Position numbers: made by a program. This document shows positions 15,001 through 27,000 of a stretch of DNA of 64,000 nucleotides, piece by piece (the first letter of the stretch is position 1; each line of letters starts with the position of its first letter). The stretch lies in IMG/VR virus record IMGVR_UViG_2703718819_000007; one strand, written 5' to 3'. The DNA comes from a virus (lineage: Duplodnaviria > Heunggongvirae > Uroviricota > Caudoviricetes).

Positions 15001-18000
15001 TAAAAAATCCATATTGTGTGGTCATGGGCTACTCCTTAAACCTTTTCGATCTGGACAAGATTGCTGTGCGACGGGTTTCCCTTTGCCAGCGGTGAAGGGC
15101 GGTGAGAGGTCAGAATATTGATACTGCCGCCGTGATCGACCCGGTCACCAAACATATCCGCTTTAAGCCACGCACCTTGCCCGATGGCGGTAACGCCAGG
15201 CAGAATACGCGGAGTCACTTTTGCGGCAATCAGCATTTCTCCATTATTGTTAAATACCCGCACGGTATCGCCATGACGGATACCGCGTGCCTGAGCATCA
15301 ATGGGGTTGATCCACACCTCTTGTGGGCAGGCCTGCTGTAACACATCAATATTGCCGTAGCTGGAGTGGGTACGCGCTTTGTAGTGGAAGCCCGTTAACT
15401 GCAGTGGATAGGTTTTCCGCAGGGGATCGTCCCAGCCATCAAAACCTGGGGTATACGCAGGAAGGGGATGAATAATTTCATCTTTTTTCAATTCCCAGGT
15501 ATCTGCAATCTTCGCCAGTCGTTCAGAATAAATTTCGATTTTCCCCGAAGGTGTTTTCAACGGGTTTGCCTGTGGATCTTCACGGAATGCGCGGAAAGCG
15601 ACGTAGTGTTCTTCCGGGCATTTTTTCTTAAAGATCCCGGTCGTTTTCATCTCCTCGTAGTCGGGCATCTCAGGGTTACGTTCCTTCGTTTTCGCATGGA
15701 GATATTTGATCCATTCATGCTGACTGCGACCTTCAGTAAAGGTTTGATAAACGTCTGGTCCTAAGCGTTTGGCGACTTCACTCAGCATCCAGTAGATGGG
15801 TTTGCGTTCAAATTTTGCTGAGGTTGCGGGTTGGGCGAGGATCACATAGCCCATATTCCCTGCAGATTCATGAGAGATAAGGTCTTCTTGCTCTGTTGGC
15901 ATCAGGTCGGGCAACAGGATATCGCAATACTTAGCCGAGGCCGTCATGAAGTGGTCAATGCCAACAATCATCTCGCACTTGCTGTCATCCTGAAGCACCT
16001 CATGGGTGTGATTGATGTCGCCATGTTGATTGATCAATGTGTTACTGGCGTAGCACCATAAAAACTTGATGGGGACATCCAGTTTTTCTTTTCCACGAAC
16101 ACCATCACGGGTCGCGGTCATTTCCGTACCATGGTCGATGGCATCTGTCCATGTAAAGACGGAAATCTGCGTTTTAACAGGATTCTCAAGCATCGGGAAC
16201 CATTCTACCCCCAGATCCCAGCTACCTTCGCGTACACCTGAGTTGCCGCCGTTTATGCCGACGTTACCGGTGAGAACGGAAAGCATGGCAATAGCGCGGG
16301 ACGTTTGCTCGCCGTTGGAATGTCGTTGTGGCCCCCAACCCTGACAAATATAAGCAGGTTTTGCTGAACCGATCTCTCGTGCCAACTGGATAATTTTTTC
16401 TGCCGGGATGCTGGTGATTTTTGCTGCCCATTCCGGCGTTTTAGCTATGCCGTCAGGCCCTTCGCCCAGAATATAGGCTTTATAATGCGCGTTACGTGGT
16501 GCGTTGGCGGGCAGCGTTTTTTCATCGTAACCAACACAATATTTGTCGAGAAATGGCTGATCGACCATGTTTTCAGTAATCAGTACCCAGGCAATCGCAC
16601 AGGCCAGTGCGCCATCGGTGCCAGGGCGAATGGGCAGCCATTCATCTTCACGCCCGGCAGCAGTGTCGTTATAACGTGGATCGATGACGATCATGCGTGC
16701 GTTTGAACGTTCGCGGGCTTGCTCGACGTAGTAAGTGACACCACCGCCGCTCATCCGCGTTTCTGCCGGGTTATTTCCGAACATAACGACCAGTTTCGTA
16801 TTGGCGATATCATCCGGGCTGTTGCCATCATTGGCACCGAACATATAACTCATTGCGGCACTGATCTGTGCGGTACTGTAGCTGCCATAGCGACTGAGAA
16901 AACCACCGCAAGAGTTCATCAGACGGTACGGGACGTTTGAGTTGGTGATGTTTCCGCCATCTACGCCTGTTCCGTACAGGACATGTACAGCCTCATTGCC
17001 GTAATCTTTCAGGATCCGCCGAAGATTATCACTGATGGTATCCAGGGCTTCGTCCCAACTTATCCGTTCAAATTTACCTTCACCGCGCTTGCCGACGCGC
17101 TTCATGGGATATTTCAACCTATCAGGATGATTCATCCGTCGGCGGATAGAGCGCCCGCGTAAACACGCTCGAACCTGATGGTTACCGTAGACGTCGTCAC
17201 CTGTCGTATCAGACTCCACCCAGTACACGGTGTCATCTTTCACATGCAAACGTAACAGACAGCGGCTCCCGCAGTTAACGGTGCAGGAACTCCAGACCGC
17301 TTTCTCTTCTACCGGAGCCTCTGCCGCCCGGACCATTTGGGAAAATGGCAGAGTGAAAGCACTGCTTGCCAGCGCAAGACTGCCAAGTGCGGAGGTTTTC
17401 ATCAGACTTCTACGGCTGATTTCAGCCTTCATGAGCGCCTCTGTGGTATGGATTTTCATCATTACTCACTTATTGCTTTTCAAACAAAATGTCATGCCAG
17501 AATTTATGATTGTCGTGGGTTATATTTTTTCGATCTCGACCAGATTAGTGTGCTGCGGGTTTCCCTTCGCCAGTGGTGAAGGGCGCAGAGTGGTTAGCGT
17601 ATTCACACAGCCGCCATGGTCGATTTTATCGCCAGACATATTGGCCTCGTGCCAGGCTCCCTGGCCCATAGCGCTAACTCCAGGGAGAATACGTGGTGTT
17701 ACTTTGGCTGGTAGCCGAACTTCGCCACGATGGTTAAACACCCGCACCATATCGCCGTTGGCAATCCCACGTTTCTGCGCATCTATAGGGTTGATCCACA
17801 CCTCCTGACGGCAGGCAGCCTTCAGGAGATCAATATTGCCGTAGGTCGAGTGAGTACGGGATTTGTAATGGAAACCAAACAGTTGCAGTGGGAAGGTTCT
17901 ACGTTCAGGGGAGTCCCAGCCTTCAAAGGTAGAGGCATAAACTGGCAGTGGGCTTATCACTTCATCTTTTTCCAGTTCCCAGGTACGGGCAATTTCCGCC

Positions 18001-24000: not shown

Positions 24001-27000
24001 ATTATCGCTCATGAGAGCCAACTGAAAGCACTGTCCCGTCTGGCTGCTAAGCAAGGCTTCTCCGGTGAAGACGCTATCGTCGATATGCTGGGAACAGACA
24101 TCGCCTACTACAACGGTGAAGACAAGGGTGTATTCATGCTGGCTAAACGCTTCACGGCTCTGAGCTTCGGTTGCTTCCGTCACGATGGCGAGAATATTAC
24201 GGTCGTCCTTTCACGTGATGGCGACTCTCAGTCCCACGACTTGGAAATCCTCGGTAAAGTGTACGTTGTCGCTGAAGCTGCTACGACCATCAAGATGGGC
24301 ACTGGCTCAGCTACTGCCGTCCTGCCTGTAGTCAAACGCCTGAAGTTCACCAAGACCGAAGCGTAAGACCAATGGGTAAGAGCATTAGTAAAGGCTTCAG
24401 GTCCATCGCCAAGGGCCTGACAGGTGGTGGTGGGACTCAAGGTGGGGCTTCGGTCCCGCCTCCTGTAGCTCCTCCTGTAGCTCCTCCAGATGACGCTCAG
24501 CAAGCTGTAGTCGATACCCAAGGTCAGGAGACCGAGGGAGGTAAGACCATGAGCAGAGGTAAGTCTGGACTGAATATCAGCAGGACTTCAGGTGGTGGCC
24601 TGTCACTGTGATTAAGACATCTATACAGCCTGTGGAGGGTGGACGATATCAAGCAACAATCTGGATGACACGCAGAGTCTATAAGCGGCTATGCTGGTCA
24701 CTGGCTGAAGCTGAACAGTGGGTGAGACGTAAAGTGCCTACCGTTCAATCGTTCCAATCATCATGATAACTATGGTCTGGACCAATGGTCTGGACCTTTG
24801 TTTTGTACTAGTTATCTAGTGCAGTAGTACAATAGACGAAGGAGGCTTTATGTCCATGACTTCCGCAGACCTAAGGTCCCTCCTGACTCTGGTCTATAAA
24901 CTCGTGCTCCTCTCTGTGGGTCTCTATATGGTCCTCTCCGGTCGACTCGGTGTGAATGTATTCGACACTCTGTCTAAGGCTGTGGGTGGGCTTCTGGGGG
25001 CTTAGGTTTGGACTCACAGTGGGACCGATGGTTTCTGACAGAAAAATGTGAATGACCATCTAATACATTAAGCCAGCAGACTTCTCCCCCATAGCCCCGC
25101 CTCAAGTCCAGACCGAGGCCACCGGGGTCCTGACCAGCCGTCTAGACATCCCGTCTAATGACACAAGGCTGACACAAAGCCTGACACAAAGTCCTTGACT
25201 CAATGCAGGACCTCAGACCTACTAAGGGTCCGCTTCAAGTCCTTGAAGTTCCAGATGAACTTAATGGGCACATCCAGTTTATCTTTGCCGCGGACGCCGT
25301 CGCGGATTGCCGTCATTTGCGGACCATGATCGATAGCATCTGTCCAGCTGAAGCAGGAGATTGACATTTTGACCGGATTATCCAGCACCGGCAGGCGTTC
25401 TATGGTAATGGTATAGGTCGATTCACGCGCGCCACTATTTCCGCCGCTGATGCCGACATTGCCCGTCAAAATAGGTAACATAGCAATAGCGCGTGCAGTC
25501 AGTTCGCCGTTTGCCTGGCGTTGCGGCCCCCAGCCCTGGCAGATATAAGCGGGTTTTGCTGTGCCAATTTCACGCGCCAGTTTGATGATACGGTCTACCG
25601 GGATACCGGTAATTTGCGAAGCCCACTGCGGCGTTTTCGCTGTGTTATCATCACCTTCACCAAGAATATAGGCTTTATAGTGACTATTTTTGGGTGCATC
25701 TGCGGGTAAGGTTTTTTCGTCATAGCCGACGCAGTATTTATCGAGAAAAGGTTGATCAACGAGATTTTCGTTAATCAATACCCAGGCAATACCCGCAACC
25801 AGCGCGGCATCGGTGCCCGGGCGAATAGGGAGCCATTCATCTTCACGACCAGCAGCCGTATCGGTATATCGCGGATCGATAGCAATCATTTTGGCGTTCG
25901 ATTTCTCGCGCGCTTTTTCAAGAAGATAAGTGATGCCACCGCCGCTCATGCGGGTTTCTGCCGGGTTGTTACCAAACATCACGACCAGCTTGCTGTTTTC
26001 AATATCCGTGGTGCTGTTGCCATCATTACTGCCGTAGGTGTAGGGCATGGCACAGGAAATTTGCGCGGTGCTGTAGGAGCCATACTGATTGAGTGAACCG
26101 CCGTAGCAGTTCATCAGGCGTTTGACCGCCGAGGCTGATGGCGAAGAGCGGGTCATATTGCCGCCAACGATCCCCGAAGAGTACTGAATATATACAGCCT
26201 CATTGCCATATTGTTCGACGGTTTTCTTCAGGCTACTGGCGATAGTATCCAGGGCTTCATCCCAGCTAATCCGTTCGAATTTGCCTTCGCCGCGTTTGCC
26301 CACGCGTTTCATTGGGTAATTCAAGCGATCGGGATGATTAATACGCCGACGGATGGATCGACCACGCAAACAGGCGCGTACTTGATGATTGCCATACTCG
26401 TCGCTGCCGGTGTTGTCAGTTTCCACCCAGGTGACTTCATTATCTTTAACATGTAGACGAAGTGCACAGCGGCTACCACAGTTGACGGAACAGGCACCCC
26501 AGATCACTTTTTCGCTGGCCTGTTGTACCGCTGCCGCTGCACTGCGCAGGGTGAACGGTAAAGAAAAACCGCCTGCAGCCAGCGCCAGAGAACCTATCGC
26601 GGTTGATTTAACGAGTGTTCTGCGGCTGATGCCCACCATTCGGTCATTTTTGGACATAACTCACTCCCTGTTCTTTATCGTTATATAAATGTTTATATAT
26701 TGAATATTTAGCGCGCTAACAATAGAGGGAGTCTACCCATTTTGGGTTAAGAATTATTAATCCATATCAATAGAAGGGTATGAGTAATAAGGTGGGATTA
26801 TGTTGTATGTTCAAATCGCCGGATGTGTCGTATCCGGCGTTCAGTCGATAATGTATTACTGCGGTTCGGCAGGCGCGCCATCCTGGGTAGACTGCGCGGG
26901 AGCAGAGACGTTACCGCTGGTGGTGCGGGTATAGAGAATTTTATGCGTATCATTAGCGCAATGGCCGACGACCTGGGAATCAGGCTGATCAACCTGGTCA

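Follow-up and report, generated by a model that had tools for sequence, protein, structure and literature searches.

Two site-specific integrations interrupt the ynfEFGH operon of an Escherichia coli strain: a Stx1a-type prophage in ynfG and, in ynfE, a candidate satellite of T7-like phages

The DNA analysed here is the 64,000-nucleotide stretch of IMG/VR virus record IMGVR_UViG_2703718819_000007, called the window in what follows, in which the ynfEFGH operon of Escherichia coli is occupied by two elements: an islet of 6,700 bp that lies within ynfE and a lambdoid prophage of which the right arm abuts a stub of ynfG. The ynf region lies on the minus strand and is E. coli DNA 99-99.6% identical to that of strain K-12. 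Positions 1550-9480 of the K-12 locus align to window positions 33177-25247, and positions 9466-13075 align to 18550-14941. Homology to K-12 is interrupted between 18550 and 25247, within ynfE, and stops 85 nucleotides inside ynfG, at 14941. The features of the locus are collected in Table 1.

The ynfE gene is broken at codons 468-470 by the 6,700-bp element. The 11-bp core AGTTCCAGATG, present in exact copies at both ends of the islet, is single-copy in K-12, and its duplication corresponds to the three-codon overlap of the ynfE fragments. In a scan with the NCBIfam profile NF041885, the 5' fragment covered profile positions 2-469 and an open reading frame (ORF) that contains the 3' part, 17520-18686(-), covered positions 460-805. 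The two scored 1014.9 and 765.5 bits against a cut-off of 1675 bits and lie 6.7 kb apart, indicating that no full-length YnfE is encoded; the 3' fragment is annotated as a pseudogene in the related strains RM10410 and A14. The break points relative to K-12, the direct repeats and the two profile fragments bear out the initial annotation, which had described ynfE as split by the islet. It had also described ynfF as intact, which holds for the ORF: the encoded protein is identical to YnfF of K-12 throughout and scored 1774.7 bits against the NF041884 cut-off of 1650 (15036-17462(-) in the NCBIfam scan), as expected of a full-length protein. The interval that it gave for the damaged operon, 17520-26657, suits ynfE and the islet, but stops short of ynfF and the ynfG stub, which are found at 14912-17459, to its left.

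The ynfG stub is translated as MTTQYGFFIDSSRCTGCKTCELACKDFK followed by VGYVSFKIN and a stop, compared with 205 amino acids in YnfG of K-12; it retains the first CxxCxxCxxxC motif only and is labelled '4Fe-4S binding protein, incomplete' in the annotation of relatives. No match within the window was found for K-12 ynfG from nucleotide 86 onward, for ynfH or for dmsD. Directly downstream of ynfF, where a four-cluster YnfG, the anchor YnfH and the chaperone DmsD were looked for, there are only the 28 codons of ynfG. Window positions 1-15100 are 100% identical to JNEC-KY179 and to four other genomes, three of them named isolates of Shiga toxin-producing E. coli (STEC). The matching DNA of JNEC-KY179 is the right arm of a prophage of about 64 kb that lies in ynfG and carries the Shiga toxin gene stx1a. 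The far end of the JNEC-KY179 prophage bears the phage integrase, and immediately downstream of it lie the remaining 540 nucleotides of ynfG, followed by ynfH and dmsD; the same genes are intact at the integrase end in RM10410, again with a ynfG 3' part of 540 nucleotides. The attR junction of the window reads GATTTTAAAG followed by TTGG, the attL junction of JNEC-KY179 reads CAACTTTAAAG followed by ATCTTGG, and the uninterrupted site of K-12 is GATTTTAAAGATCTTGG. The phage-chromosome junction thus falls at the ynfG att core and joins an arm identical to that of a known Stx1a prophage; of 5426 complete E. coli genomes, 82 have an identical attR junction. Since the junctions share the TTTAAAG core and the relatives keep the rest of ynfG, ynfH and dmsD at the integrase end, the comparison indicates that a site-specific prophage of the Stx1a type interrupts ynfG and that the gene is not deleted. 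A deletion of the rest of ynfG and the following genes by the neighbouring element, with YnfF as the sole survivor of the enzyme, would agree with the content of the window, which holds no ynfG past codon 28 and no K-12 match beyond ynfG nucleotide 85, but it is improbable given a junction that is a clean phage att core and the genes retained by RM10410 and by JNEC-KY179 with its 100%-identical arm. The truncation of ynfG by the neighbouring element, proposed earlier, is accordingly seen within the window as the 28 remaining codons, although the event is, judging from the relatives, an insertion. By analogy, the ynfG 3' part, ynfH and dmsD of this strain would sit some 62-64 kb away beside the phage integrase, and stx would be present.

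Table 1. Features of the ynf locus, the ynfE islet and the adjoining prophage arm, in window coordinates (aa, amino acids)
Feature	Position	Strand	Remarks
Prophage right arm, lambdoid Stx1a-type	1-14940	+	ends at attR inside ynfG
ynfG stub	14912-15025	-	28 native codons, 9 foreign codons and stop
Prophage att core TTTAAAG	14941-14947	-	within ynfG codons 26-28
ynfF	15036-17459	-	intact ORF; 807/807 residues identical to K-12 YnfF
ynfE 3' fragment	17520-18546	-	native from residue 468 to stop; without native start codon
attL core AGTTCCAGATG	18536-18546		left copy of exact 11-bp direct repeat
Islet body	18547-25246	+	6,700 bp; all genes on + strand, antisense to ynfE
Tyrosine integrase, 540 aa	18612-20234	+	uninterrupted ORF; PF00589 E 1.7e-14; phrog_1 E 4.7e-43
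Motif TCTCTGGGTCTCCCTATCTGTAT	18658-18680	+	resembles T7-group terminal-repeat end and concatemer junction
CTGACACAA repeat, two copies	18704-18723	+	candidate arm-type integrase sites or T7-like short repeats
Hairpin AGGGAGGGTGATAATAATCATAATCCCTCCT	20310-20341	+	overlaps 28-32-nt stretch shared with phages
Three tandem repeats of about 83 bp	20449-20648	+	each with CTTGACAT...CTGTGAGTC; between hairpin and first phage promoter
Promoter-like site ACTTGATTATCACTATAGGGGAA	20677-20699	+	20.0 bits; 30 nt upstream of 122-aa ORF
ORF, 122 aa	20729-21097	+	phrog_23123 E 9.8e-9
Kayfunavirus-type promoter CCTAAACTATCACTATAGGGAAG	21106-21128	+	36.8 bits; heads the remaining + strand genes
Variable module, overlapping ORFs of 184 aa and 198 aa	21489-22527	+	no Pfam or PADLOC match
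ORF, 57 aa	22534-22707	+	kept in all islets examined
ORF, 163 aa	22804-23295	+	immediately upstream of capsid gene; no Pfam or PHROG match
Predicted HK97-fold major capsid protein, 331 aa	23371-24366	+	likely start ATG at 23380
gp7.3 homologue, 79 aa	24372-24611	+	phrog_1320 E 1.8e-11
Small ORFs, 52 aa and 51 aa (hydrophobic)	24608-24766 and 24850-25005	+	terminator-like hairpin 24774-24796 between them
Terminal-repeat-start-like motifs	25013-25120	+	CTCACAGTG at 25013; TCTCCCCCATAGCCCC...CAAGTCCAGACC at 25083-25120
CTGACACAA(A/G)G repeat, three copies	25159-25191	+	adjoins attR
ynfE 5' fragment	25200-26657	-	Tat signal and native residues 1-470, then 15-aa islet-derived tail
attR core AGTTCCAGATG	25247-25257		right copy; 6,700 bp between copies

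The use of ynfG by Stx1-converting phages is documented. RM10410 harbours a 62.5-kb Stx1a prophage described as 'ynfG-...-ynfG' (PMC10562709), and ynfG is also the site of Shigella sonnei phage 75/02 and S. flexneri phage POCJ-13 (PMC5447701), so that the prophage of the window shares its target gene with all three. The RM10410 locus matches the window across the junction at about 97%. Compared with the full Stx1 prophages, the window holds the last 15 kb only, and the presence of stx is deduced from the 100%-identical relatives.

The two insertions occur separately in other genomes. Strain A14 has the islet in ynfE with ynfG, ynfH and dmsD intact, JNEC-KY179 has an intact ynfE and the same ynfG break as the window, and RM10410 has both insertions. 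Since A14 carries the islet alone, JNEC-KY179 the ynfG break alone and RM10410 both, the ynfE islet and the ynfG prophage evidently represent two unrelated site-specific integrations that arose as independent events; the view of the initial annotation that the operon took two independent hits is upheld by the same three genomes. It could be argued that both hits reflect selection for the loss of Ynf and not the chance use of two att sites, for both insertions are apparently present in at least four complete genomes (RM10410, EC2, ES5 and PS2Canimalfeces12), compared with about 2.3 expected under independence from frequencies of 82/5426 and 150/5426. The excess of double carriers is small, however, and the count ignores phylogeny. 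Both insertions are events of site-specific integrases at fixed cores, most carriers of the one are without the other, and a second hit is neutral once the operon has been inactivated, so that selection of this kind is considered highly improbable.

The consequences for the operon reach beyond the two broken genes. We infer that the Ynf enzyme is not assemblable from this locus, because YnfE is in two dead pieces, ynfF is without adjacent genes for YnfG and YnfH, and dmsD is uncoupled from the operon promoter. It had been proposed that activity is reduced to at most YnfF without its Fe-S partner. This agrees with the destruction of YnfE and with the lack of an intact ynfG beside ynfF, but it overlooked dmsD. 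The intactness of the ORF is no proof that YnfF is produced, and transcripts from the ynfE promoter would have to cross the 6.7-kb islet antisense. Nor is the absence of a partner certain: Lubitz and Weiner reportedly found in 2003 that Ynf and Dms subunits are partly interchangeable, and YnfF could borrow DmsB and DmsC. Expression data of another strain hint at a promoter of ynfF's own (PMC12096835), and in Salmonella most selenate reductase activity derives from YnfE and not from YnfF (PMC5203670). The dmsD gene encodes a chaperone for translocation by the twin-arginine (Tat) pathway that is needed for DmsA, YnfE and YnfF (PMC12096835, PMC10609526) and normally stands at the end of the operon (PMC5203670). 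Since relatives place dmsD co-directionally downstream of the phage integrase, its expression in this strain may rest on read-through or on an internal promoter. An intact dmsABC operon elsewhere in the genome is no guarantee of dimethyl sulfoxide (DMSO) reductase activity, because the link to the operon promoter is severed for the DmsD chaperone gene too.

The islet in ynfE is absent from K-12 and JNEC-KY179. Its layout is that of a tyrosine-recombinase integrative element: an integrase gene lies at one end, the two ends carry a direct repeat of the target, and the site is empty and single-copy in these two genomes. Among 5426 complete E. coli genomes, about 150 (about 3%) have the ynfE-type islet or its integrase and 312 (about 6%) the gene pair for the 163-residue and 331-residue proteins. 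The gene pair is commoner than the ynfE-type integrase because a sister element with another integrase, 30% identical in amino acid sequence to the ynfE type, sits at the tRNA-Gly gene glyU beside the E. coli type III secretion system 2 (ETT2) locus. The glyU sister element has the same 57-residue, 163-residue and capsid genes and the same promoters, together with genes for DUF4145 and Rha proteins. Elements of the glyU type were located in E. coli O26 RM8426 (locus L008, 1041-9550) and ARL09/232 (locus L009, 3765-9565) and also in loci L014 and L017, and S. flexneri SFBU1023 carries both types. Elsewhere, the capsid module is found at 80-98% identity in Shigella, Leclercia, Buttiauxella, Citrobacter and Enterobacter; capsid genes 90-98% identical to that of the window occur in the first four of these genera.

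Insertion sequences of the IS66/ISCro1 type lie inside the islets of RM10410 (locus L001, 9911-12526 and 14352-16967) and of O26 RM8426 (L008, 5332-7947), and the best integrase match of SFBU1023 (locus L011, 2050-3084) spans residues 1-359 only. Some copies of the islet appear to have been inactivated while the capsid module was kept. The ynfE gene has been reported as the target of the integrative elements Eco892.7.ynfE and Sfl13.8.ynfE, for which 'regulated gene integrity' was proposed (Mageeney et al. 2020, PMC7192596). In that paper these islands, found with TIGER, are tyrosine-integrase elements of 7-8 kb that occupy ynfE of E. coli and S. flexneri within its molybdopterin domain; ynfE is listed there as disrupted without restoration. 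To judge from their description, the islet of the window presumably belongs to the same family. The main text of PMC7192596 yielded nothing on the gene content of the elements or on a link to phages.

The islet encodes about ten ORFs. The integrase translation contains the HxxR and catalytic tyrosine motifs. The counterpart of the variable module is a KilA-N gene in A14 and the DUF4145 and Rha genes in the glyU type. That the 57-residue protein is a recombination directionality factor or a regulator is only a guess. All islets compared keep the 163-residue gene and the capsid gene together, and the product of the former is a candidate scaffolding protein because of its position and of a charged, helix-prone region.

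The 331-residue protein had no family match in Pfam or PHROGs and no phage match by sequence. It was modelled with AlphaFold2 from an alignment of distant homologues, with a mean predicted local distance difference score (pLDDT) of 85.3 and a predicted template modelling score (pTM) of 0.78; a model from a shallow alignment of close homologues reached a pLDDT of 39.7 and was discarded. A Foldseek search of the model against the PDB gave 235 matches at E of 0.001 or below, the best at 2.5e-9, and the top 50 listed were all capsid or encapsulin shells of the HK97 fold with a probability of 1.00. Matches included phi29, HRP29, PhiM1, Kp9, T5 and LME-1. The template modelling (TM) scores were 0.3-0.5, as is usual for the flexible HK97 fold. 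In BFVD the best match was gp10B of the T7-like phage phiIBB-PF7A (E 9.8e-11). On the strength of the model, the protein is identified as a major capsid protein of the HK97 fold. One member of the capsid-family alignment matches families of structural proteins with immunoglobulin-like domains, as capsid proteins sometimes do; a search of PDB sequences with the alignment profile gave nothing useful.

The ratio of nonsynonymous to synonymous substitution (dN/dS) was 0.09-0.12 for the capsid gene, in comparison with the glyU-type and Enterobacter copies, and 0.17-0.27 for the 163-residue gene, values that argue for maintained function and not decay; the capsid gene is thus under purifying selection. 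The capsid gene of the window (23380-24363) differs from that of A14 (locus L002, 12341-13324) by seven nonsynonymous and no synonymous substitutions, a pattern that may reflect recent diversifying selection or recombination.

The 79-residue protein encoded next to the capsid gene is 39% identical over its full length to gp7.3 of phage EcoDS1 (pairwise E 4e-14), with the N-terminal and C-terminal motifs kept. According to the T7 record, gp7.3 is required for virion infectivity and, apparently, for tail assembly. It was the sole match when all islet ORFs were compared with EcoDS1 and T7 by tblastn. A weak Pfam match of the same protein to gp6.7 (E 0.0057) was superseded by gp7.3. A tblastn search of 50,697 phage records with the capsid and 79-residue proteins gave nothing, the link to gp7.3 having been seen in the direct comparison with EcoDS1.

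The expression signals of the islet point to the same phages. Motifs of the form TATCACTATAGGG were seen on reading the intergenic DNA of the islet, and exact matches to CACTATAGG occur twice in the window, both intergenic in the islet and on the gene strand. Sites were scored with a position weight matrix built from the 11 annotated phage promoters of EcoDS1, which themselves score 30.5-37.1 bits. The two islet sites scored 36.8 and 20.0 bits, compared with 8.6 bits for the next-best site of the window and 15.2 bits for the best of 20 shuffles. The weaker site, at 20677-20699, is kept in the islets of A14, RM10410 and S. flexneri. Every full-length islet locus that was checked has sites of the phage type, and the exact CACTATAGG core lies nowhere in the fetched loci except inside the islets. 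A 30-nucleotide consensus built from the site at 21106 and those of related islets matched, by blastn, 724 phage records, and the T7-like phages among the listed matches, which include many of Kayfunavirus (K1F/EcoDS1-like), have 7-10 sites per genome of about 40 kb; the matched sites of EcoDS1 and CR44b carry a promoter annotation. Since no RNA polymerase gene was recognised in the islet, its promoters would be served only by an infecting phage. A generic scan for sigma-70 promoters and terminators gave nothing above shuffles.

Islets of other genera carry a second class of promoter. In those of Leclercia (locus L012, 5459-5507 and 6011-6060) and C. portucalensis (locus L019, 5476-5525 and 6046-6095), each unit is preceded by a tandem pair in which a site ending in ACCCTCACTATAGGG is followed 26-27 nucleotides on by one ending in CTATCACTATAGGG, and the Buttiauxella islet has one such pair (locus L013, 5429-5478). 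The second class matches other T7-like phages of about 39 kb (Cronobacter GW1, Ro103C3lw, Shigella SFP20 and others), with 4-8 sites per genome. The tandem arrangement of two classes looks like a means of responding to two different groups of helper phage.

Further motifs of the islet resemble replication and packaging sites of T7-like phages. The motif TCTCTGGGTCTCCCTATCTGTAT near the left end contains CTATCTGT, the annotated concatemer junction of EcoDS1, and aligns to the end of the T7 terminal repeat, TCTCTCTGTGTCCCTATCTGT. The sequence TCTCCCTATCTGTAT is kept in both integrase types, at 30% amino acid identity and at non-equivalent positions of the gene; conservation at different positions in the two types argues for a site at the DNA level. 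Toward the right end, a 38-nucleotide stretch aligns to positions 23-61 of the EcoDS1 terminal repeat with a score of 34, compared with a mean of 18.1, a standard deviation of 2.4 and a maximum of 27 for shuffles, and a CCCCATAGCC motif followed by CAGACC is found also after the capsid gene of glyU-type islets. Across the reconstructed attP, the end motifs are colinear and follow one another as in a T7-type terminal repeat. Among the matches listed, which are mainly phages of the Kayfunavirus type, the stretch that overlaps the hairpin is 96-100% identical to a site that lies downstream of phiOR, close to the right end of the genome; the query region matched 138 phage records overall. In the EcoDS1 version of the hairpin the loop is kept and the stem is changed with compensating substitutions. 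The hairpin, terminal-repeat-like and junction-like motifs are taken to be putative sites of replication and packaging, and an origin, iterons or host promoters are candidates for the tandem repeats of about 83 bp.

These observations can be combined in one explanation, to which we assign a probability of roughly 0.8: two integrations break the ynf operon, and the islet in ynfE most likely depends, as a satellite, on T7-like virulent phages of the Kayfunavirus group. Taken alone, a functional tie between the islet and infection by the T7 group is very probable, and the narrower proposition that the islet is a satellite of T7-like virulent phages is favoured, with less confidence, by the sequence features described. 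The islet has the general make-up of a satellite, at 6.7 kb with about ten ORFs, no genes for an autonomous virion or replication, Kayfunavirus promoters and a gp7.3 homologue. In the proposed mechanism, the genes other than the integrase, which lie behind promoters for phage RNA polymerase, would presumably be silent under host polymerase and switched on at infection. The islet would then supply a capsid protein of its own with the HK97 fold, together with a virion protein of the gp7.3 type and probably a scaffold. Excision would join the islet ends into a region like the terminal repeat and concatemer junction of T7, and the joined ends together with the phiOR-type hairpin could let the replication and terminase machinery of the helper copy and package the islet, the remaining functions being borrowed from the helper phage. 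Two promoter classes in tandem, as in some genera, would widen the range of usable helpers. It is on balance likely that the ynfE islet and its glyU sister form an undescribed family of satellites with helper-polymerase promoters, HK97-fold capsids of their own and packaging via a junction that becomes contiguous after excision.

Several results weigh against this explanation. No phage-type promoter lies ahead of the integrase gene. The sequence data contained no excised, circular or packaged form of the islet; metagenome contigs of 6.2-6.9 kb, considered as excised circles, were rejected as assembly bubbles since they consist of the islet plus flanking ynfE sequence of about 50 bp and their ends do not overlap, and IMG/VR matches lie on contigs of 18-73 kb with no sign of a packaged form of about 6.7 kb. 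The terminal-repeat-like alignments are short, with z of about 6.6 for one and a score barely above the best shuffle for the other. Searches of the islet with Pfam, PHROGs, PADLOC and tblastn against EcoDS1 and T7 recognised no gene for an RNA polymerase, replication, portal, terminase, tail or recombination directionality factor, and hhalign gave no relationship between the capsid family and gp10A of EcoDS1. With respect to the operon, the displaced genes and stx of this strain are deduced from relatives because both lie beyond the 64-kb window.

Alternatively, in keeping with regulated gene integrity, the islet could act as a switch that, under some condition, leaves the chromosome of living cells and so restores ynfE. 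The uninterrupted integrase ORF and an 11-bp direct repeat from which precise excision would rebuild ynfE are consistent with this, ynfE is among the candidate cases in PMC7192596, and occupied and empty ynfE sites co-occur in metagenomes. Mixtures of strains explain that co-occurrence equally well, however, and the recognisable expression signals of the islet are promoters for the RNA polymerase of a lytic phage, which ties its activity to an infection that the cell is unlikely to survive; moreover, restoration of ynfE would not restore the enzyme here since ynfG is also broken. The switch is for these reasons regarded as doubtful. In particular, restoration of ynfE by excision in most cells is unlikely because the islet genes other than the integrase sit behind phage-RNA-polymerase promoters. 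A further alternative, unlikely but deserving of attention, accepts the link to T7-like phages and denies that the islet is a transmissible satellite: it would be a phage-triggered defence, for example with a decoy capsid protein that is expressed by the polymerase of the invader and poisons head assembly, or the stabilised remnant of a temperate T7-like phage. The islet is without replication or packaging genes and without signs of mobilisation, expression driven by a phage polymerase suits the trigger of an abortive infection, and the exclusively nonsynonymous capsid differences from A14 hint at an arms race. Yet PADLOC found no match to a defence system in the islet, and a pure defence gene would have no use for the concatemer-junction, terminal-repeat-like and phiOR-hairpin motifs, which are conserved. 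The uninterrupted integrase, the carriage of one cargo by two integrase and att types, and capsid genes 90-98% identical across several genera also weigh against this reading, and uniform size with dN/dS of about 0.1 argues against decay. Interference with a helper and transfer by that helper are not mutually exclusive, and a defence or decoy role remains a live alternative to a satellite.

The proposed satellite of T7-like phages was compared with known elements. Phage-inducible chromosomal islands of the capsid-forming kind (cf-PICIs) are likewise chromosomal, with an integrase and an HK97-fold capsid protein of their own rather than a remodelled helper capsid. They are roughly twice the size of the islet and take only tails from helper phages. 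Their head-and-packaging set comprises a portal, protease, connectors, small terminase and capsid protein. The cf-PICIs are described as encoding all proteins for their own capsids and for DNA packaging, whereas the islet has a capsid gene, a putative scaffold gene and a gp7.3 homologue only, and is wired with T7-type promoters, unlike the cf-PICIs. The other nine ORFs of the islet gave no Pfam, PHROG or local tblastn match to functions of the cf-PICI set. [quoted passage not shown] They differ in host and helper, and the same accounts report no promoters for a helper RNA polymerase. PICMIs are described there as reduced in gene content, without genes for capsid remodelling and without capsid genes, whereas the islet encodes a capsid protein. 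No hallmark of P4-like elements, PICIs or PICMIs (primase or replicase, AlpA, Sid, Psu, Delta or Fis) was found with Pfam, PHROGs, PADLOC or NCBIfam, the last applied to 5 of the 10 islet ORFs.

With the genomes of the T7 group (EcoDS1 and T7) the islet shares the promoter consensus, a gp7.3 homologue, the junction motif CTATCTGT(AT), the terminal-repeat-like motifs and the hairpin downstream of phiOR. In contrast to these genomes it lacks genes for RNA and DNA polymerases, a primase-helicase, a portal, a tail and a terminase; its capsid protein bears no sequence relationship to gp10A, and the islet is chromosomal with an integrase. The islet does not resemble a prophage or remnant of the Autographiviridae, since no ORF matches a single-subunit RNA polymerase and tblastn against EcoDS1 and T7 returned gp7.3 only. 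The components of the double break are already documented, ynfG for Stx1 phages and ynfE for integrative elements, and the new part is the identity of the islet. A literature search of incomplete coverage found neither a published satellite of T7-like phages nor a description of this islet, and the novelty is provisional.

Other parts of the window gave further observations. An ORF of 2806 codons lies near the right end of the prophage in ynfG, at 1597-10017, and is annotated in the identical relatives as an LPD5/LPD38 domain protein. Leftward genes of the early type (DUF551, Ea22, TraR and Ant) follow on the attR side, with those for Ea22, DUF4752, TraR and Ant at 10419-14632, an unusual mosaic layout. 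Rfam gave no match in the islet; its sole matches were two copies of sRNA-Xcc1 in the prophage arm beside antirepressor genes, at 14010-14095 and 14546-14630 (-), which scored 74.5 and 53.0 bits with a gathering score of 53. A second lambdoid prophage occupies the Qin site beside rspB (32018-64000), with its integrase at 32018-33313 followed by a RecE-like exonuclease and structural genes, so that the 17-kb ynf-rsp segment, islet included, is flanked by prophages on both sides.

The results indicate that the strain is almost certainly without a functional Ynf selenate and tellurate reductase. The displacement of dmsD means that maturation of DmsABC may be poor, which matters for the anaerobic respiration phenotypes of STEC with prophages in ynfG. 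Phage therapy and biotechnology make wide use of T7-like phages, the textbook example of coliphages that are strictly lytic. Should the islet prove to be a satellite of such phages, an element with its own capsid that is activated by the phage polymerase could affect the outcome of therapy, gene transfer driven by virulent phages would have a new route, and the islet would provide a compact natural example of a logic by which the polymerase of the invader is sensed.

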